Of a stretch of 53,336 nt of DNA, positions 1 through 11,853 are shown in pieces. The translations under genes were made by a program, and so were the position numbers. The DNA is from Patescibacteria group bacterium (lineage in GTDB: Bacteria; Patescibacteriota; Microgenomatia; UBA8517): positions 1 through 53,336 of the forward strand of contig JADFPI010000003.1 of assembly GCA_022562395.1 (NCBI GenBank). The letters run 5' to 3'. Under the pieces are notes generated by a model. The model had not been told where the DNA came from. It saw nothing but the letters and a program-made list of their open reading frames with translations, and ran no database searches. The first letter of the stretch is position 1, and the number at the start of each line of letters is the position of its first letter.

Positions 1-61
1 ACCTTACCCTCATCAGTTCAACCTGAACAATATCCTCAAATGCCTCTAAAATCTTTGACAT
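1..61 (-). CDS. 5' part of a hypothetical protein running off the left edge (MSKILEAFEDIVQVELMRVR...)
   Basis: ATG at 61-59, open to the window edge; TATAAT 7 nt upstream, as for neighbouring genes. Confidence 0.4.
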   Translation of the reverse strand, partial: MSKILEAFEDIVQVELMRVR

Positions 62-83
62 AGAACTTATTATAATTTTAGAG

Positions 84-94
84 CTGGGGAGCCA
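84..94 (+). repeat. Array repeat core only (CTGGGGAGCCA), tRNA-3'-end-like
   Basis: Matches the GGAGCCA core of the downstream repeats and lies between two genes. Confidence 0.45.
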
Positions 95-106
95 GTTGGA
101 ACTTAA

Positions 107-613
107 TTAGTCCTTTTCCAGCAGAAGCCGTACTTGTTTGTCTGTTGGGGTTTCCAGTTCAATTTTTTGCCAAATCCACTGCATATCATCCCTGGCCTCA
201 TCATTAATTTCAAACTGCAACGATTTCATGTCAACTGTGGTGGCGTTGGCCAACAGTTGCATGGAAGCCTGTTCGTCTGGTGTAAGGTTTGGGTAAATAG
301 CTACTCTGAAAATACCAATAAGATTGCTTAATCTTTGTCTGGTGTGGGGCGGAAGCTCGGGCCCAGTCTCTATACTAATGGCAAGCAACCTCTCATAGAC
401 TATCTGCTCTGTGCTGGCCTCCTCATACAAAGGGTATTGCTTAGCTCTTTCAATGTGTTCTGGGTCTAGAAATTCTGCTAACCAAAACTGATTCTCGCGC
501 TCATAGCGAGCTTCTATTCCTGTATCTCCATAAGCTTCTATTCCCTTTTCAGAAGGGTCCTCGGGGTTGTGTCTCCTGTCTGGTAAATAACATGGTCTAC
601 CCTCAATTGGCAT
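107..613 (-). CDS. Hypothetical protein (cassette cargo)
   Basis: Long ORF; ATG at 613 lies 8 nt after TAGTATAAT; no motif recognised. Confidence 0.65.
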   Translation of the reverse strand: MPIEGRPCYLPDRRHNPEDPSEKGIEAYGDTGIEARYERENQFWLAEFLDPEHIERAKQYPLYEEASTEQIVYERLLAISIETGPELPPHTRQRLSNLIGIFRVAIYPNLTPDEQASMQLLANATTVDMKSLQFEINDEARDDMQWIWQKIELETPTDKQVRLLLEKD

Positions 614-639
614 GATGCGCAATTATACTATAAGTTGGT

Positions 640-732
640 AATAAGTTCTAACATCATCCATCAGACGGAGCCACACATTTTTAGCCTCAGATTTGATATA
701 TCCCAGATGGACGTTTGAACCTTTGGTATACT
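640..732 (+). repeat. Array repeat R1: left arm + GGAGCCA core + right arm ending in an extended -10
   Basis: AATAAGTTCTAACATCATCCATCAGACGGAGCCA-CACATTTTTAGCCTCAGATTT...GAACCTTTGGTATACT; homologous to the copies at 991, 1723, 1841, 2454 and 3031. Confidence 0.9.
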
Positions 733-738
733 TCAAAT

Positions 739-996
739 ATGCTCACAATTGCTGCAGTTATTGGTTTTCTTACTGTTGCACTCTCTATTCTTGTAAAAGT
801 GATAGGATTCCCTGACCAAATTAGGAAAAACTTCAAACGTAAATCTACGGAGGGTCTTTCAACATATTTTTACGTTTTGTGGACAACGCACGGGTTTTTT
901 CAAAAAGACAGGGTATTGATTCTTGGATAAGGACTTGGGATTGTTACAACAGGAATAATCTTGTACCAAATTTTTCTTTACCGAAATAAGAAATAG
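739..996 (+). pseudogene. SemiSWEET/PQ-loop family transporter pseudogene
   Basis: GFPDQIRKNFKRKSTEGLS PQ-loop motif; in-frame TAA at 928-930, after which the frame continues as GLGIVTTGIILYQIFLYRNKK to TAG 994-996; TM2 looks shortened. Confidence 0.75.
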
Positions 997-1051
997 GTTC
1001 TAACTTCATAGTTCGGTTTCACTCACTATTTACAATCCATCAGGCGGAGCC
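991..1051 (+). repeat. Array repeat R2 with a small palindromic insertion (1008-1029)
   Basis: AAATAGGTTCTAACTTC[ATAGTTCGGTTTCACTCACTAT]TTACAATCCATCAGGCGGAGCC. Confidence 0.85.
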
Positions 1052-1665
1052 TCTATTTTGTTAGCTATGAAATCTAGTACTTTTTTAATTCCTTTTTCGG
1101 GGTAAGGAATAATAATGTCGGCATATTTTTTAGTTGGGTCTAAATAAGTATTCCATTGTTTAGATATGATTTTCCATCTATTCAAGATCCGTGTCTTTGC
1201 GGTTTCATATTCTTCAGTCCCCTTTTGTTTGGAAGCTAGATCTCGCTTTAGTCTTCTTTCTAAACAAATATTGTCAGGGACATCAATAAACACTTTTATA
1301 TCAATCAGGTCTCTGATATCTTTATCCCAGAAAGTTAAAGTACTTTCGACTAAGATAGTTGGTGCCGAACGATATGATTTTGGTGGTCTGTTTAATTTAG
1401 ATTTTCGGTAAAAATTATTAATTGGAAACACGGCCTTTTGACCTTTCTTCAATTGAGAAAGCCCGGTCTTAAGTTCTTCAATAGCTTGGGATTCCAATGT
1501 GCTTGGGTCCTTACAGTTAAAATCTGCAGAATTAACTAAGAATTTATCTATGTCTATATGTATGGATTTATTTTTACCTAATGCTTTGTGAAGTTCTTGT
1601 GCGAAAGTTGACTTTCCGCTACAGCTCCGCCCCGCTATGCCAATAATTAAAGAGTTTTCGTGCAT
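1030..1665 (-). CDS. Uridine kinase/phosphoribulokinase-family P-loop kinase
   Basis: IIGIAGRSCSGKST Walker A, DIKVFID, RRLKRD, PTKKYADIIIP; C-terminal EAPPDGL* is encoded by repeat R2. Confidence 0.8.
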   Translation of the reverse strand: MHENSLIIGIAGRSCSGKSTFAQELHKALGKNKSIHIDIDKFLVNSADFNCKDPSTLESQAIEELKTGLSQLKKGQKAVFPINNFYRKSKLNRPPKSYRSAPTILVESTLTFWDKDIRDLIDIKVFIDVPDNICLERRLKRDLASKQKGTEEYETAKTRILNRWKIISKQWNTYLDPTKKYADIIIPYPEKGIKKVLDFIANKIEAPPDGL

Positions 1666-1722
1666 AATTTATTATTAACACACATTGTTAACGTAATTCT
1701 AACAGAGCATCAATAGGCATAA

Positions 1723-1755
1723 AAATAGGTTCTAACTTTGTTCATTGTGTGGAAC
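1723..1755 (+). repeat. Array repeat R3a (degenerate)
   Basis: AAATAGGTTCTAACTTTGTTCATTGTGTGGAAC aligns without gaps to the repeat consensus. Confidence 0.7.
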
Positions 1756-1761
1756 TTTTAT

Positions 1762-1869
1762 CTAGTCATTTAGCGTGAGTAGTTCTTTGGTTTGTTGCAT
1801 GATAACTTCAGGGTAATCTATTATTTCTAACCAGTTTATAGTTCGAAAATCGTCCCATCCGCCGAGCCA
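1762..1869 (-). pseudogene. Orphan C-terminal fragment, possibly of a site-specific recombinase (WLGGWDDFRTINWLEIIDYPEVIMQQTKELLTLND*)
   Basis: Open 35-codon frame starting in the repeat core with no start codon; same register as the WLRLMDDVRT tails of other copies; recombinase identity is recollection/inference. Confidence 0.45.
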
Positions 1870-1928
1870 CACATTTTCAGCCTCAGATTTTACCGACCTC
1901 AGTAGGACGATAGAACCTTTGGTATAAT
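1841..1928 (+). repeat. Array repeat R3b: variant left arm + core + full right arm with TGGTATAAT
   Basis: GTTCGAAAATCGTCCCATCCGCCGAGCCA-CACATTTTCAGCCTCAGATTT...GGACGATAGAACCTTTGGTATAAT. Confidence 0.85.
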
Positions 1929-1935
1929 TTCTGCT

Positions 1936-2451
1936 ATGACAAAGATTAAATCCTACAGATCCCCAAAAACTGAAGTTCGGGAAGAAGCTGTTGCAGGGAA
2001 AGGATTATTTGCTAAAGAAAACATCTCAAAGGGTGAAATTGTTTTTGTAAAAAGTGGACATATAGTCAATAAGAAAGACGCACTGAGATACGACAAAGAA
2101 TTAGGTGAATATAGCTTGCAAATAACTGAAGGTCTTTTTTTGTGCCCTACTACAAAAGGAGAGGTAGAAGATACAGCTATTTTTATTAACCATTCTTGCG
2201 ATCCAAATGTTGGGCCCGATGGCCAAATTACTTTTGTGGCTCTAAGAGACATAAAGGTTGGTGAAGAGCTTTGTTATGACTACGCAATGACTACGGACTA
2301 CGATTACAAGCTGGAATGTAAAGGTGGCAACAGGTCTTGTAGAGGAGTTGTGACGGGCAAAGACTGGCAACGGAAAGATTTACAAGAGAAATATGGTAAT
2401 CATTTTACCTATCATATTCTGAAGAAAATAAAATCTAGACGGAGGAAGTGA
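1936..2451 (+). CDS. SET domain protein (lysine methyltransferase fold)
   Basis: GKGLFA, FINHSCDPN, GEELCYDY and a post-SET-like C..G...CRG. Confidence 0.9.
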   Translation: MTKIKSYRSPKTEVREEAVAGKGLFAKENISKGEIVFVKSGHIVNKKDALRYDKELGEYSLQITEGLFLCPTTKGEVEDTAIFINHSCDPNVGPDGQITFVALRDIKVGEELCYDYAMTTDYDYKLECKGGNRSCRGVVTGKDWQRKDLQEKYGNHFTYHILKKIKSRRRK

Positions 2452-2453
2452 GG

Positions 2454-2487
2454 AAATAGGTTCTAACATCGTCCATCAGGCGGAGCA
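2454..2487 (+). repeat. Array repeat R4
   Basis: AAATAGGTTCTAACATCGTCCATCAGGCGGAGCA, starting 3 nt after the SET stop codon. Confidence 0.9.
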
Positions 2488-2520
2488 AAATCTAGACCCG
2501 TTGTGGTCTATGTTTTGCTC
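2483..2520. terminator. Long hairpin directly after the R4 core (terminator-like)
   Basis: GAGCAAAA-TC-TAGACC-CGTTGT-GGTCTA-TG-TTTTGCTC. Confidence 0.5.
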
Positions 2521-2544
2521 TCTGTGGTTTGTGAGAAGTTACCT

Positions 2545-2604
2545 GTAGGTTCGGATACGCGAAGCGGAGAAAGCGGAGGAACGAGTAATCCTACCCGGGG
2601 AGCA
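2545..2604 (+). pseudogene. tRNA(Asn-like) 3' half with an insertion in the T-loop
   Basis: GTAGG-TTCG[33-nt insert]AAT-CCTAC-CCGGGGA-G-CA: T-stem, 7-nt acceptor strand and G discriminator; no D or anticodon arm found. Confidence 0.6.
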
Positions 2605-2702
2605 CTTCGATTTGCTACGCTTCACTCAGTGCAGGCGTGGCGAATTGCAGCTTTTTTGGTAGGATGAGAAATTTACACTGAGCGAGCGCAGTGAGTCGAA
2701 CG
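2605..2702. repeat. Inverted pair of REP-like elements (TTCGA..CT.CGCT..CTCAGTG family)
   Basis: 2605-2636 CTTCGATTTGCTACGCTTCACTCAGTGCAGGC versus the reverse complement of 2671-2702, CGTTCGACTCACTGCGCTCGCTCAGTGTAAAT. Confidence 0.6.
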
Positions 2703-2722
2703 TGAGTCCTATCGCCGGAGCA
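2659..2722 (+). pseudogene. Second tRNA(Asn-like) 3' remnant, T-loop disrupted by a REP-like element
   Basis: GTAGG...GAGT-CCTAT-CGCCGGA-G-CA. Confidence 0.5.
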
Positions 2723-2725
2723 ACT

Positions 2726-3001
2726 TTATTCTATGCTGAACATTAAGGCATCTGTGCCCGCACCAGTGAGTTTTGGAGTGGAAATGCTAAATCCCATTCT
2801 TACGGTGCGTCCCTGGTTTGTATCTTGAAGGTACTTTAATGCCGCCATAGCCTCTTCTACTGTTATTCTGTCCCTTTTATAGAAATTTTTTTCCCCTGCT
2901 CGTGTAACAATAACAATATCTTCTTGCCCTTCAAAAGGAGATCTCTCAAACGATAGTGACGAGATTAGTTTTTCTATATCAGGAGCGCCTTTTGATTCCA
3001 T
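2726..3001 (-). CDS. Hypothetical protein (cassette cargo)
   Basis: 91-aa ORF fills the interval between the core ending at 2722 and R5; TGGTAAAAT upstream. Confidence 0.6.
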   Translation of the reverse strand: MESKGAPDIEKLISSLSFERSPFEGQEDIVIVTRAGEKNFYKRDRITVEEAMAALKYLQDTNQGRTVRMGFSISTPKLTGAGTDALMFSIE

Positions 3002-3030
3002 TTTTTGTAAAGATGCACTATTTTACCATA

Positions 3031-3119
3031 AAACAGGTTCTAACTTCATTCATCAGGCCGAGCCAATTTCTTAACCTCAGATTTTGATAATCGGAAAAGG
3101 TAGGCTTCTTTGCTAGAAT
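3031..3119 (+). repeat. Array repeat R5 with right arm and extended -10
   Basis: AAACAGGTTCTAACTTCATTCATCAGGCCGAGCCA-ATTTCTTAACCTCAGATTTT...TGCTAGAAT. Confidence 0.85.
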
Positions 3120-3125
3120 CAAGGT

Positions 3126-3437
3126 ATGGATAAAATCATAATTTTTATAGTTGGTGTCTTGGTGGGTGGGTTTTTAGTCTGGGTAATAAAGAGAAGAAAG
3201 AGCGGCTTTGCGGCCTTCAATCTTAAAAGGCAGCAGGCAAAAAAGGAGGGAAAAAAGAAAATACTGAAATTATTGAAAGATAAAACAAGTATTTCTAACA
3301 ACGATGTCGAGAGACTACTTAGTGTTTCTGATGCAACGGCGACCAACTACCTTCAGGAGTTGGAAAACGAAGGCAAAATTGTCCAAATTGGTAAAACCGG
3401 CAGATCTGTTTCCTACAGCCTCAAAATAAACGGCTAA
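3126..3437 (+). CDS. Membrane-anchored winged HTH protein (DeoR-like HTH)
   Basis: N-terminal TM helix; ISNNDVERLLSVSDATATNYLQELENEGKIVQIG. Confidence 0.75.
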   Translation: MDKIIIFIVGVLVGGFLVWVIKRRKSGFAAFNLKRQQAKKEGKKKILKLLKDKTSISNNDVERLLSVSDATATNYLQELENEGKIVQIGKTGRSVSYSLKING

Positions 3438-3458
3438 CACTATAGTATTAGCCGTTTA
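3427..3458. repeat. 32-bp near-perfect palindrome over the HTH gene stop
   Basis: TAAACGGCTAACACTATAGTATTAGCCGTTTA, one mismatched pair. Confidence 0.8.
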
Positions 3459-3471
3459 CGGTAAAACTAAA

Positions 3472-3502
3472 CCACACATTTTTGGCCTCAATATGGTATA
3501 AG
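3472..3502 (+). repeat. Array repeat R6 (right arm only) plus -10-like element
   Basis: CCACACATTTTTGGCCTCA-ATA-TGGTATAAG, 7 nt before the aquaporin ATG. Confidence 0.65.
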
Positions 3503-3509
3503 TATCCAA

Positions 3510-4100
3510 ATGAAAAAGAAATATATTGCGGAATTTATCGGTACATTTACGTTAGCTCTTTTGATTGTACTTTCCGCAAATAATTCATTGATGCCAACGC
3601 CGTTGATTGCTGGATTGACTTTAATGCTGCTTGTCTACCTCATTGGAGCAATTTCGGGTAGCCATATTAATCCTGCGGTAACCATTGGTTTATTATCAGT
3701 TAAAAAAATCTCTGGCAAAGAGTCGCTAAAATACATAGTTTCGCAAGTATCGGGCGGTCTCACTGCACTTGCTTTAGTGTCTATGTTTGGATTTGCCGTC
3801 AGTTCTCCAGGGGCAATAAGAATGGAGCTTTATTTCTTTGAATTTCTAGGAATGGGGCTATTTACTTTTGGGATAGGGTTTATAGTTTTTAATAAAATCA
3901 ACACAGCTTTTGACGGGGTGATCATCGGCCTGTCACTTCTTTTAGGAATTCTTATTTCGGTTTATGGCGGTGCAGCTGGAATACTTAACCCTGCAGTTGG
4001 CATAGCACTTAAAACAACTTTTGTAGAGTATTATATTGTTCAGTTTCTTGGTGGCGTTGCAGGCTTTCAATCAGCAAAATACTTATATAATTCTAAATAA
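3510..4100 (+). CDS. Aquaporin/MIP family channel
   Basis: AEFIGTF, SGSHINPAVT and LNPAV (two NPA motifs). Confidence 0.9.
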   Translation: MKKKYIAEFIGTFTLALLIVLSANNSLMPTPLIAGLTLMLLVYLIGAISGSHINPAVTIGLLSVKKISGKESLKYIVSQVSGGLTALALVSMFGFAVSSPGAIRMELYFFEFLGMGLFTFGIGFIVFNKINTAFDGVIIGLSLLLGILISVYGGAAGILNPAVGIALKTTFVEYYIVQFLGGVAGFQSAKYLYNSK

Positions 4101-4259
4101 ACCAACCCACCTTCATCGCGGGCAAGATGATATTTCCTATTTGGATTTATCCGGTGATTAGAAGTTAACTTAGGCAATAAGCCTAACTCCACTTACTCAT
4201 TCCCTAATTTCAATCTCTTCATTGTATGTCGTTAAAATAGAATCTGGTAGAATTTCATT

Positions 4260-4589
4260 ATGGCTCAACCGTATTTAGACCAGCTCAAGAAATTAGTAAA
4301 GGATGCTGGGCAAGAGAAGCTAGAGTGTAAGCATTTTTTTAGCGGTGCCGCTTGCTATACAGATGGTAAAATATTTGCTTCACTCACGTCCAAAGGTTTT
4401 GCCTTAAAGCTACCTGAAAAGGCGAGAAGTAAACTTATTAGGCAGCGGGGTAAAGCCCTTCGGTATTTCCCAAAAGCTCCGGTTAAAAAAGACTACGTTG
4501 TGTTGACAAAGGAAATGGTGAAGAATGCTGAAACTTTTAAGAAGCTGATAAAAATAAGTATGAAATATGCACAAACTAGAAAAACTTAG
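4260..4589 (+). CDS. TfoX/Sxy N-terminal domain protein
   Basis: KHFFSGAACYTDGKIFA...FALKL...KKDYVVL pattern. Confidence 0.7.
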   Translation: MAQPYLDQLKKLVKDAGQEKLECKHFFSGAACYTDGKIFASLTSKGFALKLPEKARSKLIRQRGKALRYFPKAPVKKDYVVLTKEMVKNAETFKKLIKISMKYAQTRKT

Positions 4590-4607
4590 ACTAACGATAG
4601 TTTAAGG

Positions 4608-4805
4608 CTATTTTTTCTTCTTCTCTTCCTTATTTTTGCGCCAACCGCCCCAGCAGCAAAGGCATCTTTTTCCAAAAAAAGCCGAGACACCAAATGCAAT
4701 TATTAAAAGCGGCCAAAATATGCCCCAGACATTACTTGGCAAGTAGCCTAGGTTGCTAAGTAACCAGATTCCGCCTACTATTATTAAAAACAAGCCCCAA
4801 AACAT
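4608..4805 (-). CDS. Small membrane protein (DUF5668/LiaF-TM-like)
   Basis: GLFLIIVGGIWLLSNLG...WPLLIIAFG; GGGGGTGA SD upstream. Confidence 0.7.
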   Translation of the reverse strand: MFWGLFLIIVGGIWLLSNLGYLPSNVWGIFWPLLIIAFGVSAFFGKRCLCCWGGWRKNKEEKKKK

Positions 4806-4880
4806 TGTTTATCACCCCCTAATACAACTTAAGTATATTATATTAGCTCTGACTTTAATAATAACCCGCCCTGGAGGAAT

Positions 4881-5045
4881 CTAGTTTTGCCGCTTCCAGG
4901 CGAGGATGAAGCCTGCTAGCGCTCCTAAGGTGCTAAAGATAATCGAAGAGATTGAAATTAAGCCCGCACCCCACAGTTTTGGTATGTAGGCTCCGATTGT
5001 CGAACCGATAAAGATGGCGATGTAAATAACTACCTTTGAAGACAT
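4881..5045 (-). CDS. 54-aa membrane protein, absent from the ORF track
   Basis: MSSKVVIYIAIFIGSTIGAYIPKLWGAGLISISSIIFSTLGALAGFILAWKRQN*; TAGAAT 5 nt before the ATG. Confidence 0.6.
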   Translation of the reverse strand: MSSKVVIYIAIFIGSTIGAYIPKLWGAGLISISSIIFSTLGALAGFILAWKRQN

Positions 5046-5090
5046 AAGCTATTCTACATCCTTAAAACCCGTTGCGGGAGTTAAGTATTT

Positions 5091-6068
5091 CTAGCAGCCT
5101 TCGTATGTTCCCCCGCAGGAGTGACATCTGTAACCTGCTGATATGACTGAGTTTATTGGAGTTCCGCAGTTTCCGCAGCTTACAACGTGTTTTGCAGATT
5201 CAGAACTAATTATGGCTTGGGCAAAAGTCTTATCAAAAATACCCAAGTTTGCATCTTGTAGACTTTTTAAGGCTTCCTGATTGGAAATTCCACAACTTCC
5301 ACTTGCTTGGAGAAGTATTCCGGAGGCTGCTAATTCGGCCTCCATCATTGCGCCGGCCGTCATATAATCGTAAGCCCTCTCCGCTGCCAGAATTAGATTG
5401 TAATATTTTTCAACTACCGGTTTTGCTAAGCGCTTCATTTCCTCTTTTGCCCTAATATCGTCTGCCCCCCTTACTTTTTCCCAAATTTTTGGCTCGTCAA
5501 TTAGTCCTTCGAGATATTCAAACCAAGTTAAACTTTCAGGAGGGTTGAAAAAGACAGGGGAAGCCCTAAGTTTATTGGAAGAGCCAACCTCGGCAAAATT
5601 TTTGTCTGAAGTGCTAGCTATTTCTTTGGCAAGATTTGCACATTCACTTTCAGAATAAGGCAGGCAGAAGGCTCGATATAGTACTTCTGTGTTGCCGTTG
5701 TCACCTTTTGTTTCATAAACCATTAGGCGGGCTTCCGAGTAGCCAAACTCGCTGCTCGGTGGACTTATCCAGGCTAAATTTTTGGATTGCTTCTCTCTCG
5801 CCCAGCGCTCGATAATCAGAAAACCGTGGTTTTCTAAATAATCCGACTTGGTATCCCAACGCAGCTTAACTTTATTTCCCAAAGTATCGTAAAGATGCCC
5901 ATCTTCGTTAAGATAAAGAACTCCTGTGTTTATTCTTTCTTCCGGCGGAGACTCTCTTTGCTCAATTGAAGCAGCGGCAAAATCCTCAACGGTTCTTTCT
6001 ATTGCCTCGCCAATTAATTCATCTTCTTTGGGAAGCCAGTTTCTTGTATCTAGTGCAAGTCTTTCCAT
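5091..6068 (-). CDS. Hypothetical protein with C-terminal Zn-ribbon (CxxC...CxxC), riboswitch-preceded
   Basis: 325-aa ORF with AGGAG SD; SCGNC...RCHSCGGTYEGC. Confidence 0.75.
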   Translation of the reverse strand: MERLALDTRNWLPKEDELIGEAIERTVEDFAAASIEQRESPPEERINTGVLYLNEDGHLYDTLGNKVKLRWDTKSDYLENHGFLIIERWAREKQSKNLAWISPPSSEFGYSEARLMVYETKGDNGNTEVLYRAFCLPYSESECANLAKEIASTSDKNFAEVGSSNKLRASPVFFNPPESLTWFEYLEGLIDEPKIWEKVRGADDIRAKEEMKRLAKPVVEKYYNLILAAERAYDYMTAGAMMEAELAASGILLQASGSCGISNQEALKSLQDANLGIFDKTFAQAIISSESAKHVVSCGNCGTPINSVISAGYRCHSCGGTYEGC

Positions 6069-6109
6069 TTTTCTCCTGCTCGGAATATCCCGCCTAAGGC
6101 GGGAAGAGA

Positions 6110-6290
6110 TTGCTAGTTTTCTGGCTTCCGTCCTTCGCGTAAAGCTTCGGAACGGTTACAGTTGCGGCACAGCTGGGGATTTACACCCCATTCCTTTACC
6201 CCAAGAGAGATAGCTAAAGCATCTCACGGGGTAGCCCGTTTGATACTTGCTAAAGCAAGTTATCTAACCGGGCAACACAATCTCTAGCAA
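6110..6290 (-). ncRNA. Cobalamin (B12) riboswitch
   Basis: Minus strand: P1 TTGCTAG/CTAGCAA, AAAGGAATGGGGTGTAAATCCCCAGCTGTGCCGCAACTGTAA and B12-box GGAAGCCAGAAAAC. Confidence 0.85.
6197..6273. repeat. REP-like palindrome doublet, copy 1 (inside the riboswitch)
   Basis: TACCCCAAGAGAGAT..ATCTCACGGGGTA + GCCCGTTTGAT..ATCTAACCGGGC; inverted homologue of 6706-6779. Confidence 0.85.
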
Positions 6291-6367
6291 GATTATTGAC
6301 TAGATTTTCAAATATTTCAAGACTCGTCTGGCGAGTCAAGTAGCGTTTTATGATATTATGAACTAAA

Positions 6368-6436
6368 GTGGCAAGCGGGATAGCTGCATCAATTGCTTAT
6401 TTTGTTGGATTTTTGCTTGGGAAGTATGTGGTTTAG
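6368..6436 (+). pseudogene. Possible C-terminal remnant of a membrane protein (VIT1/CCC1-like end)
   Basis: VASGIAASIAYFVGFLLGKYVV*, with no upstream gene body. Confidence 0.3.
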
Positions 6437-6454
6437 CCCCGCACCAATTTTGCT

Positions 6455-6715
6455 ATGTATTATGTATATGTTTTACAAAGCAGGAAGGATAAAGGGCTAT
6501 ATACAGGTTACACGGATGACTTGGAAAAAAGATTAAAAAAGCATAAACAAGGTTTGGTCATATCGACAAGAAGTAGAAAACCTTTAAACATTATTTATTA
6601 TGAGGCTTGTTTAAATAAAAGGGATGCACTTCATCGCGAGAAGTATTTAAAAACGGCTTGGGGCAAGAAATTTATTAAAAATAGATTGAGGAATTACTTA
6701 AGAGGTCCCAGTTAG
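6455..6715 (+). CDS. Stand-alone GIY-YIG nuclease
   Basis: YYVYVL...LYTGYT.DL..RL..H...YYEA...A..RE..LK. Confidence 0.9.
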   Translation: MYYVYVLQSRKDKGLYTGYTDDLEKRLKKHKQGLVISTRSRKPLNIIYYEACLNKRDALHREKYLKTAWGKKFIKNRLRNYLRGPS

Positions 6716-6779
6716 ATAGTCCCTTTGGGACATCAAACGGGATCCCGTGAGATGCTCTAGAAGAGCTATTTCACTGGGA
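6706..6779. repeat. REP-like palindrome doublet, copy 2 (contains the GIY-YIG stop codon)
   Basis: TCCCAGTTAGAT..ATCAAACGGGA + TCCCGTGAGAT..ATTTCACTGGGA. Confidence 0.85.
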
Positions 6780-6792
6780 GGAGGTGAATGAA

Positions 6793-6969
6793 ATGAAGAA
6801 AAAGGACATAAGGACTCTTTCTCAAGTTCTAATAGGGGGTGCTGTTATTTCTGTGCTTTTGTCAGGGATTGGCTACACGGGGGCAGACATCTGGCTTGCT
6901 TCAACCCAATGGCTTTTGGTAGCGGCCGTTTTGGCATTATTTGGGGTGTACACCAGGCTTGAGTCGTAA
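6793..6969 (+). CDS. Small two-TM membrane protein
   Basis: GGAGGAGGTG SD; hydrophobic ORF. Confidence 0.65.
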   Translation: MKKKDIRTLSQVLIGGAVISVLLSGIGYTGADIWLASTQWLLVAAVLALFGVYTRLES

Positions 6970-6974
6970 GCGGG

Positions 6975-7006
6975 GCGGAAAATACGCGGAAAATACGCGG
7001 AAAATA
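6975..7006 (+). repeat. Tandem 11-mer GCGGAAAATAC x~3
   Basis: Read directly from the sequence. Confidence 0.8.
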
Positions 7007-7013
7007 AGGAAAC

Positions 7014-7042
7014 TTGACACATAGTATGGTATCTGTTAACCT
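7014..7042 (+). promoter_or_regulatory. Sigma70 promoter, leaderless configuration
   Basis: TTGACA-17 bp-TAACCT (with TG extension), 6 nt before ATG 7049. Confidence 0.6.
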
Positions 7043-7048
7043 GGCGCA

Positions 7049-7525
7049 ATGAAAAGAAGAGATATAGTAATAGGCCTCATTGTATTGGCCGTGCTTGCAG
7101 GAATTATTTTTCTAGCCAGAAGACAAAGGGAGCAACCTGAACTTCAGACAACTCCATCAGTTGAAGAAAGACTGGAAGAATCTTTTAACTTAGAGATTCC
7201 AGAAGACGTTGAAAAGATAGAACTTGCTGATGTATCAGGCGGTGATTCTTCGGGTATCGCAACTAGAAAGTTTGAAGATGCAACATTTACACACGTAGTA
7301 TTAGCCGACCTTCCAGAACCGGAGGAAGGTAAATTTTATGAGGGCTGGTTAGTCAAGGGAGAGGAAGTTGTTTCGACAGGAAGACTTAGAGTTGCCAAGG
7401 GCGGTTATCTTTTAGAATTTGAATCCTCAACCGATTATTCTGACTACAAAACTGTGGTAGTTTCAGAAGAAGAGGTAGCTGACGCTACTCCAGAAAAACA
7501 TATATTAGAAGGCTCCTTCGAATAA
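7049..7525 (+). CDS. Membrane-anchored protein with anti-sigma-K (RskA C-terminal)-like domain
   Basis: N-terminal TM; LPEPEEGKFYEGWLV...VVVSEE...PEKHILEG. Confidence 0.6.
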   Translation: MKRRDIVIGLIVLAVLAGIIFLARRQREQPELQTTPSVEERLEESFNLEIPEDVEKIELADVSGGDSSGIATRKFEDATFTHVVLADLPEPEEGKFYEGWLVKGEEVVSTGRLRVAKGGYLLEFESSTDYSDYKTVVVSEEEVADATPEKHILEGSFE

Positions 7526-7570
7526 TTCTTGCCACTTCATTTAAGATCTGCTCTGGGTTAAGATTTTACT

Positions 7571-8311
7571 ATGAGTTTTCTTAAGGTTTTTGCTTCTTTT
7601 ATCCTTGCTTTTTTGTTTTTATCGCTGGCAAGCGACAAAGCTTTGGCTTCACTTGTCGTGGTCCAAAAAGATGGCAAGGTTGTCTTAAATGTTTTATCAA
7701 TCGAAAATACTGTTGAGCTTGAAATTCCAAGAAGAGATTATTTAGAGATTAAAAATATAGCTCAAGAGATTCCTGACCCGGGCTCTAAAATTTCATTAAC
7801 CAGAAAAGACGGCAGAGTTACGCTGAATGTTTCTACAAAAAGCGGGGAAAAAAGTTTGGATGTTACAAACTATAAAGATGAAATTGTCGAGATTGAAGAA
7901 AGACCGGCCCTTGAAACAGTGAAGATAGGGGTTTCTGATAATCAATTTACCATCGAGCAAAGGGGAGTAGTTGCCAGGACCGATTACGAGATAAATATTG
8001 ACCCGGAGAGTGCCGGAATTACTTTGACAACTCCTTCCGGTCTTAGATTTTTATCGATCTTGCCTTATGAGGCAGTTGAAACGGCCTTGCGAGCCAAGAT
8101 AATAAATAGACTTACAAACCAGAATAACGTGGCAATAATAGAGGAAGGAAGAGAATTATCTTACGAGTTAGCTGGAGAGCGAGTTCTTAACTTTTTCGAT
8201 GTATTTAAATACCCAGTGCCGGTTAAAACCAAGATTTCGGCTTCAACCGGCGAAGTTTTATCTATCGAGCAACCTACTTGGCTAAGAATTCTAGGCTTCC
8301 TGTTTGTCTAA
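7571..8311 (+). CDS. Exported hypothetical protein
   Basis: Signal peptide ending ALA; C-terminal ISASTGEVL...W motif. Confidence 0.7.
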   Translation: MSFLKVFASFILAFLFLSLASDKALASLVVVQKDGKVVLNVLSIENTVELEIPRRDYLEIKNIAQEIPDPGSKISLTRKDGRVTLNVSTKSGEKSLDVTNYKDEIVEIEERPALETVKIGVSDNQFTIEQRGVVARTDYEINIDPESAGITLTTPSGLRFLSILPYEAVETALRAKIINRLTNQNNVAIIEEGRELSYELAGERVLNFFDVFKYPVPVKTKISASTGEVLSIEQPTWLRILGFLFV

Positions 8312-8347
8312 TTGGTTACTCCGTAGGAGCGCTGTGCTTGACCCCCT

Positions 8348-8378
8348 TGATATACTGAATATACCCCCAGGGGGTATA
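8348..8378 (+). promoter_or_regulatory. Extended -10 (TGATATACT) followed by a CsoR/RcnR-type operator
   Basis: Palindrome TATACCCCC-A-GGGGGTATA (8360-8378) directly before the CsoR-family ATG; C/G tracts flanked by AT are typical of this family's operators. Confidence 0.8.
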
Positions 8379-8379
8379 C

Positions 8380-8616
8380 ATGCAAGACCCTGTTATTTCT
8401 CGCCTTCACAGGATAAAAGGACAAATCGAGGCAGTCGAGAGGATGTACAAAGCTCGAAAGGCCTGTATTGAAGTAGTACGACAGGTTCAAGCGGCAAGAG
8501 CCGCGCTAGGTAGACTTGCGGGCATACTATTAACTGACGAAGCAAAGCGCTGTGTAGATGCTGGAGATTTGAAAGAATTAGAAAAGATTGTCAATAAAAC
8601 TTTTAAAATAGTTTAA
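8380..8616 (+). CDS. CsoR/RcnR family transcriptional repressor
   Basis: RLHRIKGQIEAVERM...C.EVV.QV.AARAAL...C. Confidence 0.9.
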   Translation: MQDPVISRLHRIKGQIEAVERMYKARKACIEVVRQVQAARAALGRLAGILLTDEAKRCVDAGDLKELEKIVNKTFKIV

Positions 8617-8621
8617 GAAAG

Positions 8622-9362
8622 ATGTTTGACATCAATTTTCCAGTTGCATTCGGCGCAGGAGTAGTTTCTTTCTTTGCCCCTTGCGTTGTCCCGCTTTTGC
8701 CGGCTTATGTAGGTTATGTTACTGGAGTTTCTGCAAAAGACTTGAAGGCTTCTAATTTCGGTAAATACAGAACCCAACTTATTGTTTCAAGCCTCTTTTA
8801 TATCATCGGGTTTTCAATTATCTTTGTTATCTTGGGAACTGCAGCAGCCGGCTTGGGACAATCACTGCGCCAATTTGACAACATAATTCGAATTGCAGGA
8901 GGAGCGTTAATTCTTGTGCTCGGCCTTAATTTTGCCGGCTTTTTGCCGATACCTGCACTAGCGAAGGAACGCAAATTTAAAGTACCAACGTGGGTCAATA
9001 AACTTGGGTATGGCCGTGCTTTTTTAGTGGGCGTCGTTTTTGCCGTTGCCTGGACGCCTTGCGTCGGAGCAGTTTTGGGTTCAATTTTGGCCCTGGCAGC
9101 GATTTCGGGAACAGCAACAACCGGAGCGTCTCTGCTTTTGGTTTATTCGCTTGGCATATCCATCCCTTTTATGCTCGTTTCCTTAACCCTTGCCCAGGCT
9201 CCCAAATACATTCCCGCCATCTCCCGTTATATCGGCCCAATATCAAAAATTGCCGGACTAATTCTTGCCGCCTTAGGGCTTTTGCTCTTGACCAACACAT
9301 ACCGTTTTGTCAACGCTTGGCTTTTTGAGATTGCATTTAGCCTGGGATATCAGATAAAGTAA
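8622..9362 (+). CDS. ccdA: CcdA/DsbD-TM thiol-disulfide transporter
   Basis: SFFAPCVVPLLPAY and AWTPCVGAVL. Confidence 0.9.
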   Translation: MFDINFPVAFGAGVVSFFAPCVVPLLPAYVGYVTGVSAKDLKASNFGKYRTQLIVSSLFYIIGFSIIFVILGTAAAGLGQSLRQFDNIIRIAGGALILVLGLNFAGFLPIPALAKERKFKVPTWVNKLGYGRAFLVGVVFAVAWTPCVGAVLGSILALAAISGTATTGASLLLVYSLGISIPFMLVSLTLAQAPKYIPAISRYIGPISKIAGLILAALGLLLLTNTYRFVNAWLFEIAFSLGYQIK

Positions 9363-9440: not shown

Positions 9441-10022
9441 ATGAATAAAAACTTAATTGTAGCAATAGCAGTAATTTTAGTCTTAGGTGTTGGTGGTTTC
9501 CTTGTATTCCGTGGTAGTGGACAAGATTCTACAACTCCTGGGGCTTCTCAAACAACCAAGTCTAGGCCTGTCCCTGCCGAGGTTTCTGGTTCATTTACAA
9601 AAGGGCAGGAAGCGCCTGATGTTAGTTTTACCGACTTTGACGGCAATACTCACAACCTTTCTGACTTTGCCGGCCAGGCTGTAATTTTGGATTATTGGGC
9701 AGATTGGTGTCCCTTTTGCAGAGCAGAAATGCCGGAATTGCAGGCGGCTCAAGATAAATATGGCGACGACCTGGTTATGGTTGGAGTGCACAGAACTGGT
9801 ACAGAATCTAAAGAGGTTGGTCAGCGCTTTGCCGACAAGATTGGAATAACCTATCTTTTGGTAGTAGATCCGGACGACTCGCTTTATCGGGCAGCAGGAG
9901 GTTTCGGAATGCCAGTTGCCGTTTTTATCGACAAGGATGGCGTGGTAACCGAGATTAAATCTGGTCCGAAAACTAAAGAGGAGATTGAAGAAAAGGTAAG
10001 TAGGTTAATAAGTAGTCAATAG
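9441..10022 (+). CDS. TlpA/ResA-like membrane-anchored thioredoxin
   Basis: YWADWCPFCRAEMPEL, GMP cis-Pro loop, N-terminal TM. Confidence 0.9.
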   Translation: MNKNLIVAIAVILVLGVGGFLVFRGSGQDSTTPGASQTTKSRPVPAEVSGSFTKGQEAPDVSFTDFDGNTHNLSDFAGQAVILDYWADWCPFCRAEMPELQAAQDKYGDDLVMVGVHRTGTESKEVGQRFADKIGITYLLVVDPDDSLYRAAGGFGMPVAVFIDKDGVVTEIKSGPKTKEEIEEKVSRLISSQ

Positions 10023-10032
10023 CAAATAACTA

Positions 10033-11040
10033 ATGGATATTCGTGGGATTACATTGAGCAAGGTTTTGATTATTGCTGCTATTGCTTCAGTGGTGGTTAT
10101 CAGTGTGATATCAAGAATTAGGGGGAGGGCAAACCCAGTGACAGAAATAACAAAAAGAGCAACGCAGGCAATAACAGGAGGAGGTGGGTTTGATTTTGAC
10201 GAGAACACCCCCGGTTATGAAAATTACACGAAGCTTCTACAAGGTTGTCCGTTCAAAGATTGTATCCCTTCAATTGATAATCCGGTTTTTGAGTCGGTTG
10301 GTGCGGCTGACAAATGGCTTGAGGCGAACGACGTTGTTTTTGCACTGGACTACAAGGGGGAGGCAAGAGCGTATGCTCAAAGAATTCTCAATTTGCACGA
10401 AATTGTTAATGATGTAGTTGCGGGCGATCCTTTGGCAGTAACATTTTGTCCCCTTTGCGGTTCGGCGCTTGCATTTGATCGGCGCATTAACGGTCAAACT
10501 CTCGAATTTGGAGTGTCTGGCAAGCTTCACGATAACGACTTGATTATGTATGATAGACAGACAGAAAGCCTTTGGCAACAAATTACGGGCGAAGCTATAG
10601 TAGGAGAACTTTTTGAAAAGAAGCTGAAACAGGTTCCTATGAGTGGAATGCGCTGGAGCCAGTTTAAGGAGGAGTTTCCCCAGGGACAAGTTCTTTCCCG
10701 CGATACTGGTTTTTCCAGAAACTATGACCGCTATCCATATGGAAACTACGAACAAGACAGCTCTCCGCTTTTCCCTGTCGAGGGAGGGGTAGACCAAACG
10801 ATTCATCCCAAAACGGTTGTGTACGGTGTTGAGGTTAATGGTAAGTTTAAGGCATATGAACAAGACAAAATCGAAGTCCAAGGGACTATCAAGGATAAAA
10901 TTGGAGGAGTTGAGATTGAAATTTCGTATAATAATGGAGACGTGACAGTTAAAAATCTTGACACAGGAGATGAGGTTGTTGCGACAAGGCTATTCTGGTT
11001 TGCCTGGAAAGCGTTCCGTCCGGAGACGGATTTATACTAG
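10033..11040 (+). CDS. DUF3179 family protein
   Basis: DCIPSIDNP, HEIVND, TFCPLCGS, FGVSGKL, MYDRQTESLWQQ, FWFAW. Confidence 0.85.
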   Translation: MDIRGITLSKVLIIAAIASVVVISVISRIRGRANPVTEITKRATQAITGGGGFDFDENTPGYENYTKLLQGCPFKDCIPSIDNPVFESVGAADKWLEANDVVFALDYKGEARAYAQRILNLHEIVNDVVAGDPLAVTFCPLCGSALAFDRRINGQTLEFGVSGKLHDNDLIMYDRQTESLWQQITGEAIVGELFEKKLKQVPMSGMRWSQFKEEFPQGQVLSRDTGFSRNYDRYPYGNYEQDSSPLFPVEGGVDQTIHPKTVVYGVEVNGKFKAYEQDKIEVQGTIKDKIGGVEIEISYNNGDVTVKNLDTGDEVVATRLFWFAWKAFRPETDLY

Positions 11041-11069
11041 GCGTGACTTTAGGGAGGCTTGTCACTCGC

Positions 11070-11148
11070 CACGTCGCGCAAAGCTATGCGGCGTGCGACC
11101 GTAGCCAGGTGTACAGAGGACCCTCCTTCGCTAAGGCTTCGGAAGGGT
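11070..11148. repeat. Two GC-rich hairpins with a GC(T)AA(A/G)GCT core (REP-like)
   Basis: CACGTCGCGCAAAGCTATGCGGCGTG and ACCCTCCTTCGCTAAGGCTTCGGAAGGGT; similar to 6128-6155. Confidence 0.55.
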
Positions 11149-11207
11149 TAGGGTTCGCTCATAATTTATAATAAAAATAAAGGAGGGCGAAGGGTGGTGA
11201 GTAAAAT

Positions 11208-11654
11208 ATGAATAAAAACTTACTTATAGGCTTGGCCGTGTTAGTTGTCCTTGGTGGAGGTTATCTTTTGCTTTCCAGAGGAGCAGGCTATCAAACGCCT
11301 GAGACCGCAACACCTACTCGGCAGGAACCTCAAGCTACTGAGCCGGCGAAGGAAGAGGAGGAGGGAGAAGTTACGGAGGCACGCGAAATAGTTGTGGAGG
11401 GAAGCGAATTTTCTTTTTCCCCATCAAGCATTACCGTAAATGCTGGAGAAAAGGTAAAGTTAACGTTTAATAACGTAGGCTCTTTTCCCCACAACCTTAC
11501 GGTCGAAGGACTCGGAATAGCAACAAAGACAATAGGTGGAGGGCAATCAGACACAATAGAGTTTACAGTTGAAGAAGGTGGAACTTATACCACTTTCTGC
11601 AGCGTTGGCAATCATAGAGCTCAAGGAATGGAGGGAACACTCGAAGTCGAGTGA
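11208..11654 (+). CDS. Membrane-anchored cupredoxin (type 1 copper)
   Basis: PHNL and FCSVGNHRAQGM supply the H, C, H, M ligands. Confidence 0.85.
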   Translation: MNKNLLIGLAVLVVLGGGYLLLSRGAGYQTPETATPTRQEPQATEPAKEEEEGEVTEAREIVVEGSEFSFSPSSITVNAGEKVKLTFNNVGSFPHNLTVEGLGIATKTIGGGQSDTIEFTVEEGGTYTTFCSVGNHRAQGMEGTLEVE

Positions 11655-11805
11655 ATTTCTAATTTCTAATTCCTAATTTCTAAACAATATCAAATTTCTA
11701 AATTCAAATTCTAAAACTTTTGAATTTTGTTATTTGGATTTTGGATTTATTTTGAGCTTGCGAAAAACAAGCTTTGCTTATTTAGAATTGGGTGCTTAGG
11801 ATTTC
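11654..11805. repeat. AT-rich inverted repeat built of heptamers (AATTTCT)n
   Basis: AATTTCT AATTTCT AATTCCT AATTTCT... mirrored by TTTGAATTT..TTGGATTT..TTAGAATT..TTAGGATTT. Confidence 0.65.
11748..11783 (+). repeat. ~30-bp dispersed repeat (GAAAACAAGCTTTGCTTAT family)
   Basis: Also at 16514-16567 (minus strand, 2 units) and 28917-28982 (2 units). Confidence 0.75.
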
Positions 11806-11853
11806 TCCGCCCAAATATTCAATTTTTGGCGGGGCGAAAGGTGGTGAGAAAAG

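Follow-up and report, generated by a model that had tools for sequence, protein, structure and literature searches.

The array at the left end of the window (the whole 53,336-bp stretch of a Patescibacteria contig analysed here) probably represents the distal part of a flexible island anchored at a tRNA-Asn gene and built by site-specific accretion of att-bounded micro-cassettes. The array would be a previously undescribed form of tRNA-site accretion, and a literature search whose reach stopped short of supplementary files returned no published description of such a system. To our knowledge, the gain and loss of accessory genes in ultra-small Patescibacteria-type genomes is poorly understood. 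If the accretion reading is true, a conserved, modular att site at which single genes are stacked next to tRNAs would account for the hypervariable regions and contig breaks of their assemblies, and the array site would mark the location of strain-specific genes. An initial annotation of this DNA had proposed a cassette array, and this interpretation is supported: we looked for a fixed gene order among relatives, for genome-wide scatter of the repeat and for an integron integrase (intI), and saw none of the three. The modular construction of the site, a constant box with a tRNA-specific end, and its wide distribution had not been recognised in that annotation.

A modular repeat at the start of the window

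The repeat family is genuine, lies on the + strand only and does not extend past the initial 3.1 kb of this 53-kb contig. A motif HMM gave six matches in the 53,336-bp window, every one on the + strand and inside 638-3063, and all repeat copies listed in the initial annotation as sharing one orientation were recovered on this strand. When the window was compared with shuffled sequence, the core CCATCAGGCGGAGCC (up to three mismatches) matched four times against 0.57 expected, with at least four reached in 1 of 100 shuffles, and the right arm matched twice against 0 expected; the 12-nt arm alone is weak (nine matches against 4.98 expected, nine being reached in 6 of 100 shuffles). The assembly as a whole yielded 12 matches (E ≤ 0.1), seven of them on this contig, two on C36 and one each on C41, C20, C22 and C29, the last two weak. 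The repeat is clustered rather than scattered, as had been anticipated, and the best motif copies of C31, C20, C36 and C41 adjoin a contig end.

The site itself is modular. Its L box is a constant 21-nt element (AAATAGGTTCKAACRTCGTYC) that resembles a tRNA T arm with five extra bases and usually has a stop codon at its start, and its R box duplicates the last bases of a tRNA gene, namely the acceptor 3' strand and discriminator of the target tRNA, and ends at a fixed distance of 19 nt past GTTCNAAC; some copies also have a T box. In the window, L+R copies occur whole or split, next to one copy with an L box only, all on the + strand, and to partial copies that consist of an R box, a tRNA-like 3' end or the right arm (Table 1). 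The right arm described as following the repeat is indeed present, but stands only ahead of + strand genes.

Each gene-holding interval of the window contains one gene, in line with the initial annotation, and Pfam returned the families expected from it (PQ-loop, PRK/uridine kinase, SET, wHTH and MIP), with no family for 107-613 and 2726-3001. The frame of the PQ-loop (SemiSWEET-like) gene is interrupted by a TAA. The four + strand genes have a TGnTAnnnT-type -10 box 6-7 nt ahead of the ATG. A TfoX_N gene adjoins the array. The repeats were also considered as a MITE, a short non-coding unit with terminal inverted repeats and a target-site duplication, and rejected, since an inverted L-like partner accompanies only two window copies (3' of the copies at 640 and 1837, at 713-724 and 1909-1920, respectively) and 13 of 119 copies overall, and the copies are clustered, not dispersed.

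Table 1. Features of the array from left to right along the window
Feature	Position	Strand	Remarks
R-box-only copy (83-94), GCTGGGGAGCCA then GTTGGAACTTAAT	83..107	+	21/22 positions match tRNA-Asn 3' end and downstream flank of G024
Cassette gene A, 168 aa from ATG 613	107..613	-	No Pfam family; promoter side toward L box at 640
L box 640-659, Asn-type R box 660-673	640..673	+	
T box CACATTTTTAGCCTCAGATTT 674-694; inverted L-like box 704-724; extended -10 TGGTATACT 724-732	674..732	+	
PQ-loop (SemiSWEET-like) gene	739..996	+	Pfam; in-frame TAA 928-930; final TAG 994-996 within next L box
Split copy: L box 991-1009, 25-nt insert 1010-1034, R box 1035-1051	991..1051	+	Joints of other samples begin at 1009 and 1051
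PRK/uridine-kinase-family gene	1030..1665	-	Pfam; last codons extend into R box
L box without R box	1723..1743	+	
Variant L+R copy TATAGTTCGAAAATCGTCCCATCCGCCGAGCCA 1837-1869; T box 1870-1890; inverted L-like box 1909-1920; -10 TGGTATAAT 1920-1928	1837..1929	+	
SET-domain gene	1936..2451	+	Pfam
L box 2454-2474, R box 2475-2487	2454..2487	+	Top-scoring copy
Strong hairpin	2481..2521	+	Fold of 2450-2560: -37.6 kcal/mol, z = -3.26
Decayed tRNA-Asn 3' part: GTAGGTTCG 2545-2553, 33-nt T-loop insert 2554-2586, AATCCTACCCGGGGAGC 2587-2603	2545..2603	+	Last 17 nt identical to tRNA-Asn end of L075
Second tRNA-like 3' end GAGTCCTATCGCCGGAGCA	2704..2722	+	
Cassette gene, 91 aa	2726..3001	-	No Pfam family; first gene past tRNA in X6-type arrangement
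L box 3031-3051; R box 3052-3065; diverged T box 3064-3084; -10 TGCTAGAAT 3111-3119	3031..3119	+	
Gene with N-terminal hydrophobic stretch and winged-helix DNA-binding domain	3126..3437	+	Pfam wHTH
T box (right arm) alone 3472-3490; -10 TGGTATAAG 3494-3502	3472..3502	+	
MIP/aquaporin gene	3510..4100	+	Pfam; right-hand unit common to all four samples compared

Linkage to tRNA genes and distribution

The tRNA(Asn-like) anchor suggested earlier was confirmed in relatives and metagenome contigs (L057, L059, L066, L075 and L089), where the motif is preceded by a tRNA-Asn of the same strand. In sample X6, window position 2717 is joined directly to an intact tRNA-Asn T arm and 3' end (GGTTGTAGGTTCGAATCCTACCCGG), and the two tRNA-like 3' halves reported inside the array are present, the first of them belonging to a decayed tRNA-Asn. 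The 23 metagenome loci retrieved with the Asn-type pattern contained three tRNAs, all tRNA-Asn (two upstream on the same strand, one on the opposite strand), and in 80 genome loci all eight tRNA-Asn genes were found upstream of the motif on the same strand. Furthermore, the R box matched the local tRNA end at 5.34 of 8 positions, compared with 4.36 of 8 for tRNAs of a different amino acid specificity, and the match to the own tRNA exceeded the control in 31 of 38 loci with an upstream same-strand tRNA (Wilcoxon p = 6e-6). A tRNA-tail match of at least 5 of 6 was seen in 44 of 75 motif copies, and in 33 of these 44 it ended exactly 19 nt past GTTCNAAC, whereas 36 of 37 real tRNAs end at 13-14 nt.

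The exact L-box pattern was matched in no fewer than 120 genome stretches, most of which carry a Patescibacteria label, and the box of about 20 nt is conserved across classes. Scanning of Patescibacteria-type genomes with the repeat model, a check suggested by the initial annotation, detected same-strand motif arrays in many genomes of this order. The HMM gave 128 matches in 47 loci and 159 matches in 80 further loci, with a single orientation in 127 of 127 loci and mixed strands in none; the median spacing was 854 bp, and 42 of 81 intervals held one ORF of at least 45 aa. A chromosomal hot spot between rpoD-dnaG and homologues of window 6784-8311 carries tRNA-Asn and differing arrays in at least four genera. 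In one genome (G010), a dispersed 1,475-bp duplication, 99.8% identical, has motif copies at both ends, and one ATPase gene stands beside the motif in two others (G007 and G108) in opposite orientations relative to it.

As a tentative extension, which we consider rather doubtful, the arrays may reflect a tRNA-programmable gene-capture system that spans the phylum Patescibacteria and may reach into some neighbouring groups. The constant T-arm-like box would be recognised by a conserved recombinase, for which the universal Xer-like enzyme of the host is a possible candidate, the short exchangeable tRNA 3'-end copy would set the target, and single-gene micro-cassettes could be captured, stacked, shuffled and exchanged at any tRNA gene, with no need for a resident integrase. 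If true, the arrays would amount to an integron-like platform that arose independently, and to a main route of gene flux in these reduced genomes.

Strain variation, recombinases and alternative readings

In contigs from other samples, window cassettes are missing or reordered with breakpoints inside the motif, which bears out the expectation that content and order differ between related populations. The population data consist of assembled contigs, not reads, and the joined contigs are not chimeras of the reference sequence, because each joint includes 22-36 letters specific to these contigs. The joints connect 1051 to 3073, 686 to 3073, 1863 to 2600 and 1009 to 1790, with a back-joint from 2475 to 713 on a single contig of depth 2.3, and position 3071-3073 is the common joining point of four differing upstream contexts. 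A second contig of X1 has a full L+R copy ahead of position 3473, and in X2 the SET gene precedes the SWEET gene, a change of order relative to the window. The majority of strain differences are of presence or absence, and no circular form was seen in the assembled contigs of the population samples.

We propose that strains differ because recombination between any two direct copies would cause units to be lost or re-inserted. The units would be very small (about 0.3-1.5 kb), mostly a single gene with its own promoter, each ending in a modular recombination site, and integration beside the tRNA would displace older units outward. We infer the crossover point, the circular intermediates and the identity of the enzyme: the tRNA-end copy (R box) is the likely crossover region, and single cassettes would move as units via a circular form with a recombinase supplied in trans, either an integrase from a phage or element or a host Xer-like recombinase. 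If true, this would be a simple recombination system, composed of a 21-nt box and, at a constant distance of 19 nt, a tRNA-specific end.

The assembly (94.7% complete) encodes just two Xer-like tyrosine recombinases and no resolvase, and no recombinase is linked to the window array. The IntI integron integrase is absent from the assembly, as the best TIGR02249 match, an Xer-like gene on C40, scored 89.9 bits against a cut-off of 265, and an Rfam search at E ≤ 10, which addresses Rfam families in general and gives no attC-specific score, found nothing related to the motif. The Patescibacteria-type genomes searched have few recombinases, about two Xer-like genes each, and array-rich genomes contain no additional integrase. 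No recombinase cluster emerged among 611 ORFs of array loci, a recombinase lay within 8 kb in only 1 of 80 motif-bearing genome loci, and 16 loci around extra tyrosine recombinases contained neither motif (E ≤ 0.05) nor tRNA.

Three recombinase-bearing elements, one tyrosine and two large serine, were found between a tRNA and the motif. A provirus-like contig (L098) is bounded on one side by tRNA-His and on the other by an L+R motif (CCACCCA in both), and between them it encodes a tyrosine recombinase with 38% identity to one host Xer-like recombinase. In both L051 and L139, tRNA-Gln has a large serine recombinase gene as its neighbour (the two overlap in L051), with a Gln-type motif about 4 kb off; the L051 element also has a Rep-like gene. 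Besides the scarcity of recombinases near the motif, the single low-depth contig behind the back-joint and the lack of a circular form among the assembled contigs, three further observations count against accretion. The association of the L box with both tyrosine- and serine-recombinase elements is odd for a recombinase-binding site, the R boxes of one array have only about 4-7 bases in common (GAGC), a short stretch for copies as they now stand to exchange strands, and breakpoints fall at several positions (1009, 1051, 686/3073 and 1863/2600).

The three recombinase-bearing elements also fit an alternative that we regard as unlikely, in which the repeats are attR scars of repeated integrations at the tRNA by larger integrase-bearing elements (phages or small serine-recombinase/Rep elements), each later deleted down to the attR-adjacent gene, and the small units were never self-mobile. 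The decayed tRNA pieces within the window array and the prevalence of presence/absence differences agree with such a history, but random deletion is not expected to spare a single complete gene together with its promoter in 42 of 81 intervals, nor an intact L box with its 19-nt spacing, and the X2 gene order, the dispersed motif-bounded duplication and the same gene beside the motif in both orientations are left unexplained.

Less probable again, the motif may serve merely as short homology by which host homologous recombination swaps imported cassettes without a site-specific enzyme. The minimal mobile elements of Neisseria, whose cassettes are swapped by homologous recombination, provide a parallel. 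While this would account for neither the single orientation in all loci, nor the R box tracking the local tRNA with exact spacing, nor the 20-nt box kept across classes, it agrees with the failure to find a dedicated recombinase in the assembly, the array-rich genomes and the 16 recombinase loci, with the several breakpoint positions and with the TfoX_N gene beside the array. Finally, a purely regulatory role without recombination, as operator, insulator or terminator of an accessory regulon, e.g. via the palindrome GGTTCGAACC near promoters, is highly improbable. In its favour, two window genes have an inverted L-like box directly against their -10, an extended -10-like box comes after 40 of 119 copies, and an open frame of 40 codons or more terminates in 23 of 119, but copies occur in divergent, convergent and tandem intergenic regions alike, always on one strand, four of five folded no better than shuffles, and tRNA mimicry, tRNA adjacency and strain breakpoints would go unexplained.

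Comparison with known systems

Among streptococcal ICEs and IMEs, CIMEs are described in the relevant passages of PMC5704250 as decayed ICEs or IMEs that are att-flanked, lack integration genes, are arranged in tandem where a target gene has its 3' end and presumably depend for movement on the integrase of another element. As far as those passages go, the array shares the att-flanked units without integration genes in tandem at such an end; Pfam detected no integrase or transfer genes inside the window units, and direct repeats of the tRNA 3' end are found at the 3' end of the tRNA gene. The three recombinase-bearing elements between a tRNA and the motif lend indirect support to the idea that a cognate integrase from another element may excise or integrate the units. 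The array differs in that its units, of which up to eight stand in a row, are for the most part single genes 0.3-1.5 kb long, and its site combines a constant box conserved across classes with a tRNA-specific end.

The tycheposons of Prochlorococcus, in the portions of 10.1101/2020.12.28.424599 devoted to them, belong to a streamlined genome without classical mobile elements and form islands beside tRNA genes with scattered partial tRNAs, where newer elements push older ones inward; they have integration modules with tyrosine or large serine recombinases, replication modules and cargo of up to 10 kb or more. Within that description, a streamlined genome lacking classical mobile elements, tRNA-side flexible islands, partial tRNAs, stacking and both types of recombinase are common to the two systems. 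In contrast, nearly all array units lack both modules, and the repeat is a T-arm-like box with five extra bases, not a plain partial tRNA. Since Pfam found these hallmark modules absent from the window units, a tycheposon was rejected. The Dehalococcoides islands, according to the part of PMC3146451 concerned, integrate site-specifically at ssrA, a small RNA gene (tmRNA). To that extent, they resemble the array in site-specific integration at a small RNA gene.

IMEX and the pdif modules of Acinetobacter plasmids are small, have no recombinase of their own and rely on a housekeeping Xer-type enzyme; their dif-like sites are 28 bp, in which a 6-8-bp centre is flanked by two 11-bp arms that bind Xer, and occur as alternating inverted pairs. 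The array likewise has small units without a recombinase, in a host whose tyrosine recombinases are all Xer-like, but it targets tRNA ends, its motif copies are direct, and inspection of the motif consensus by eye showed no 11-6-11 dyad. Integrons hold same-orientation, mostly single-gene cassettes, whose end site often gives a stop codon and whose content varies between strains, on a platform of attI with a Pc promoter. The arrays described here agree in their same-orientation, mostly single-gene cassettes, site-supplied stop codon and strain-variable content, whereas they have no IntI, most cassettes have their own promoter, and the platform is the end of a tRNA gene. The attC sites of integrons are structured imperfect palindromes with R''/R' boxes; of the motif copies, four of five folded no better than shuffled sequence, and 13 of 119 have an inverted L-like partner. 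If the accretion reading is true, they would constitute a second, independent instance of integron-like cassette arrays.

Anatomy of the repeat motif and its chance controls

The assembly that holds the window (G000) amounts to 0.92 Mb in 52 contigs at 94.7% completeness, and the window is one entire contig of it (G000:C31), of which bases 1-4200 were read directly. A repeat finder recovered the repeat families of the initial annotation at the positions given there, and the gene identities in that annotation agreed with Pfam (PQ-loop, PRK/uridine kinase, SET, wHTH and MIP); three window genes had no family in this search. The core CCATCAGGCGGAGCC, searched with up to 3 mismatches, gave four matches, all on the forward strand (658, 1037, 2473 and 3050), against 0.57 expected by chance, and four were reached in 1 of 100 shuffles. 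The right arm gave two matches against 0 expected, with two looser copies at 3064 and 3472. The 12-nt left arm alone was found 9 times against 4.98 expected, without significance, and its search also located inverted copies at 713-724 and 1909-1920. Furthermore, a motif HMM run across the 53-kb window returned six matches, every one on the forward strand and within 638-3063. An RNA element was rejected, as Rfam at E<=10 returned only chance-level snoRNA/lncRNA matches, and four of the five folded copies had z from -0.8 to +0.4.

Alignment of the window copies with copies from relatives resolved the motif into three parts: a constant L box (AAATAGGTTCKAACRTCGTYC), an R box that varies between lineages, and a T box (ATTTTTAGCCTCAG) present in 12 of 119 copies. 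A stop codon (TAG 45, TGA 16, TAA 12) directly precedes GTTC in 73 of the 119, TGG is missing from the 12 commonest contexts before GTTC, and 23 of the 119 close a reading frame that stays open for at least 40 codons. The PQ-loop (SemiSWEET-like) frame of the window contains an in-frame TAA at 928-930 and runs on to a TAG in the L box; the TAA could denote a pseudogene, an assembly error or read-through.

The L box is similar to the T arm of a tRNA, with TAGGTTCGAA common to it and the tRNA-Asn of relatives, and the distance from L box to pseudo-acceptor end is 5 bases longer than in a tRNA. Over 38 loci, the R box scored 5.34 against the last 8 nt of the local tRNA versus 4.36 against the tails of other-amino-acid tRNAs, and the match to its own tRNA was higher in 31 of 38 (Wilcoxon p 6e-6, a generous value because the loci are related). 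This test supersedes an earlier, cruder one on 9 loci, which was clear for Asn alone. The last 6 nt of the tRNA were matched at 5 or more positions in 44 of 75 motif copies, and the match ended exactly 19 nt past GTTCNAAC in 33 of these 44 and at 18 nt in 3 more, while the same distance in real tRNAs is 13-14 nt in 36 of 37. The R-box match and the 19-nt spacing thus show a modular site, in which a constant box is followed at a fixed distance by a tRNA-specific end.

Distribution of arrays and their tRNA neighbours

A covariance model built from seven Asn-type copies, against which other types score low, found matches in 85 of the 139 genomes of the order at E<=0.1, with a best E<=1e-3 in 32 (counted from the result table). 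Of 89 matches from 24 fetched sources, 88 lay on the strand of their own locus, the exception having E 0.54; similarly, nhmmer gave 128 matches at 47 loci, none with both strands. The median spacing between copies was 854 bp (10-90%: 414-2531), and the 81 intervals contained one ORF of at least 45 aa in 42 cases, two in 23, three or more in 15 and none in 1, with 97 ORFs on the motif strand and 57 opposite. The exact Asn-type pattern occurred in 23 metagenome stretches, 10 of the 23 matches lying within ~310 nt of a contig end.

The exact 20-nt L-box pattern was found in at least 120 stretches of one-genome-per-species contigs, with ~9 estimated by chance. The 80 listed among them held 159 matches (28 loci with at least two, 19 with at least three, none of mixed strand), and comprised 55 labelled as Patescibacteria lineages of several classes, 17 with labels of other phyla and 8 unlabelled. 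The 17 other-phylum loci have complete motifs and similar G+C; either their labels are wrong or the system extends beyond Patescibacteria. These MAG contigs (L122, L124, L129, L132, L134, L135, L144, L150, L152, L160, L163, L170, L173, L176, L180, L182 and L189) are labelled Gammaproteobacteria, Pseudomonadales, Elusimicrobiota, Bacillota, Omnitrophota and others, and some hold arrays of 4-6.

ARAGORN detected no tRNA gene within the window; in the G000 assembly it detected 45 tRNAs, none of them an intact tRNA-Asn. Pieces of tRNA ends do lie in the window (Table). The only tRNAs at the 23 Asn-type metagenome loci were three tRNA-Asn, of which two lie upstream of the motif on its strand and the third lies on the other strand. 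In metagenome contig L075, five units of one gene each, 250-1000 bp long, come after tRNA-Asn, and four of them have a TGnTATAAT-like box. Among loci of the order, L057, L059 and L066 have a same-strand tRNA-Asn upstream, L050 has one on the opposite strand, and in L059 the 22 nt GCCAGTTGGCACTTAATATACC follow the tRNA and recur after a motif 2.3 kb off. A same-strand upstream tRNA was present in 29 of the 80 listed genome loci (of at least 120): Asn in 8, Trp, Gln, His, Leu and Gly in 3 each, Ser in 2 and four others in 1 each; all 8 tRNA-Asn present in the 80 were upstream on the same strand.

Strain variation and the flanks of the island

Parts of window 1-6000 are present in twenty marine-sediment runs. 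We placed Logan contigs (assembled contigs, not reads) of four samples, X1, X2, X4 and X6, on window 1-9000; X1 is probably the source sample of the window. From ~2700 rightwards the reference was covered in all four, and leftwards the arrangements differed. Parts of the window left of ~2700 had little or no contig cover in X2, X4 and X6, and joints alone were used, absence not being read. The initial annotation had asked whether cassette content or order differs among relatives with breakpoints at the core. Judging by the joints and loose ends, units are absent, exchanged for others or placed in another order, and the breakpoints fall in L, R or T. Because the joints have letters of their own, they argue against the contigs being chimeras of the reference.

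Joints, loose ends and other features of the window (a>b, position a fused to b; sample depth in brackets)
Feature	Position	Sample	Detail
tRNA end + flank	83-107		21/22 positions equal to G024 tRNA-Asn end + flank
Broken tRNA-Asn end	2545-2553 + 2587-2603		T arm and acceptor end, broken by 33 nt; last 17 nt identical to L075 tRNA-Asn
Decayed tRNA end	2704-2722
Joint	1051>3073	X2 (18.6), X6 (3.3)	36 own letters
Joint	686>3073	X2 (3.8)	22 own letters
Joint	730>3073	X2, X6
Joint	1863>2600	X2	4 shared letters, GAGC
Joint	1009>1790	X1
Joint	1015>3409	X1
Back-joint	2475>713	X2 (2.3)	SET placed ahead of PQ-loop gene
Loose end	before 2717	X6	intact tRNA-Asn T-arm + 3' end
Loose end	before 3473	X1	another L+R copy
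Loose end	before 3071	X4	another R box
Palindrome, near-perfect	3427-3458		3' of wHTH gene
TfoX_N-domain gene	4260-4589 (+)		competence-regulator family; immediately right of array
Gene of 325 aa	5091-6068 (-)		no Pfam family
Cobalamin riboswitch	6094-6233 (-)		37.8 bits, over gathering score; upstream of 325-aa gene
Joint	5062>6156	X2
Small GIY-YIG gene	6455-6715 (+)
Joint	6368>6775/6777	X2, X4, X6	GIY-YIG gene swapped for 39-40 other letters

Elsewhere in the order, G010 contains a 1,475-bp dispersed duplicate, 99.8% identical, with a motif copy at each end, and a homologous ATPase gene adjoins the motif in G007 and G108 in opposite relative orientation. The array loci of G108 and G109, two species of one genus, have one common 432-bp stretch outside the cassettes.

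In G118, G028 and G024, tRNA-Asn and unrelated arrays lie between genes homologous to window 6784-8311 and the rpoD-dnaG pair, which in G000 is on contig C20; in G108 the rpoD-dnaG side alone was seen. Since the same flanking genes enclose these tRNA-Asn arrays, the left end of C20, which has its own motif copy (302-340), probably represents the opposite side of the window's island. Contigs C36 and C41 have motif copies at their ends too. In G118 and G028 a GIY-YIG ORF ends 1 nt ahead of tRNA-Asn. The gene behind the riboswitch may be absent in some strains, as one X2 contig joins across it.

Other repeats accompany the array. The palindrome also occurs on contigs C39 and C18 and, in two copies, on C52; contig depth in the 3301-3600 bin is ~5-10x that of its neighbours in all four runs, and the palindrome looks like a multi-copy terminator-like repeat. 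A recurrent 22-27-nt element of the type CTTCGACAAGCTCAGGG / CACTGAG..TCGAAG has inverted copies next to the decayed tRNA (window 2604-2703), forms an insert splitting the T box in X2 contigs (joints 686>3073 and 1051>3073), and lies within G010 motif copies, at ~1400-1440 of L015, and in the Xer-like gene promoter region of G000 and G038.

Candidate recombinases and interpretation

G000 encodes two Xer-like tyrosine recombinases (contigs C40 and C15), and neither an IntI-level match nor a resolvase was found in the assembly. PF00589 averaged about two genes per genome over the 139 genomes, array-rich ones having no excess; a link between its gene number and arrays was rejected, as per-genome counts did not track them. 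No recombinase family emerged when 611 array-locus ORFs were clustered; NUDIX, GIY-YIG and small membrane proteins recurred. Extra tyrosine recombinases were likewise rejected as drivers: at the 16 loci around such genes, neither a motif (E<=0.05) nor a tRNA was present. So was a dif/Xer site next to xer: in G038 the Xer-like gene has a motif 70 nt upstream, the shared promoter alone is conserved at the same place in G000, and all other fetched loci lack xer beside the motif. This region (TTGACA, 17 nt, TAATAT in G000), the promoter of the universal Xer-like gene, is conserved across two families of the order (L015 1395-1450; L011 2940-2990, reverse strand).

Three elements link the motif to a recombinase. 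The two ends of the viral contig L098 (16.8 kb) hold tRNA-His and a His-type L+R respectively, with CCACCCA common to both, and a gene between them encodes a 351-aa tyrosine recombinase. The protein most like this integrase is the universal host Xer-like enzyme (38% identity to that on G000:C40), and 130 of the 139 genomes match it at E<=1e-20; a related-locus search with it returned only itself. The viral scan with an 18-nt L box gave 5 matches, about chance by its own estimate; L093/L098 alone was informative, the other four records having no resolvase and L096 no tyrosine recombinase. In L051 (from G024) and L139, a large serine recombinase gene lies beside tRNA-Gln with a Gln-type motif ~4 kb away, delimiting elements of ~3.8-4.3 kb. 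The L051 element (9605-13498) also carries a Rep (ORF2/G2P-like) gene and a 59-aa ORF, and the 3' end of its recombinase gene overlaps the tRNA-Gln on the opposite strand.

The best reading is that att-bounded micro-cassettes accreted site-specifically at tRNA genes, in this case at tRNA-Asn, with crossover likely to take place in the R box. A transient integrase borne by a phage or other element has about an even chance of being the acting enzyme, and the host Xer-like enzyme and something else are each unlikely, to a similar degree. Three rivals to site-specific accretion are less likely: the window repeats could be scars of larger elements, for which L098, L051 and L139 speak; exchange could go by homology only, for which the several breakpoint positions in the motif speak; or the motif could be regulatory, which would leave its tRNA-like end unexplained.

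No earlier description of such arrays was found in the literature searched, supplements not being covered, and the available part of a Patescibacteria phage paper makes no mention of motif arrays. The array works like an integron but fails its IntI feature. In concept it matches tandem accretion and CIMEs, as set out in the accessible portion of PMC5704250, and the tycheposon-shaped tRNA islands in that of preprint 10.1101/2020.12.28.424599; as far as those portions go, it differs from both by its unit size, its near-absence of integrases and its modular site.
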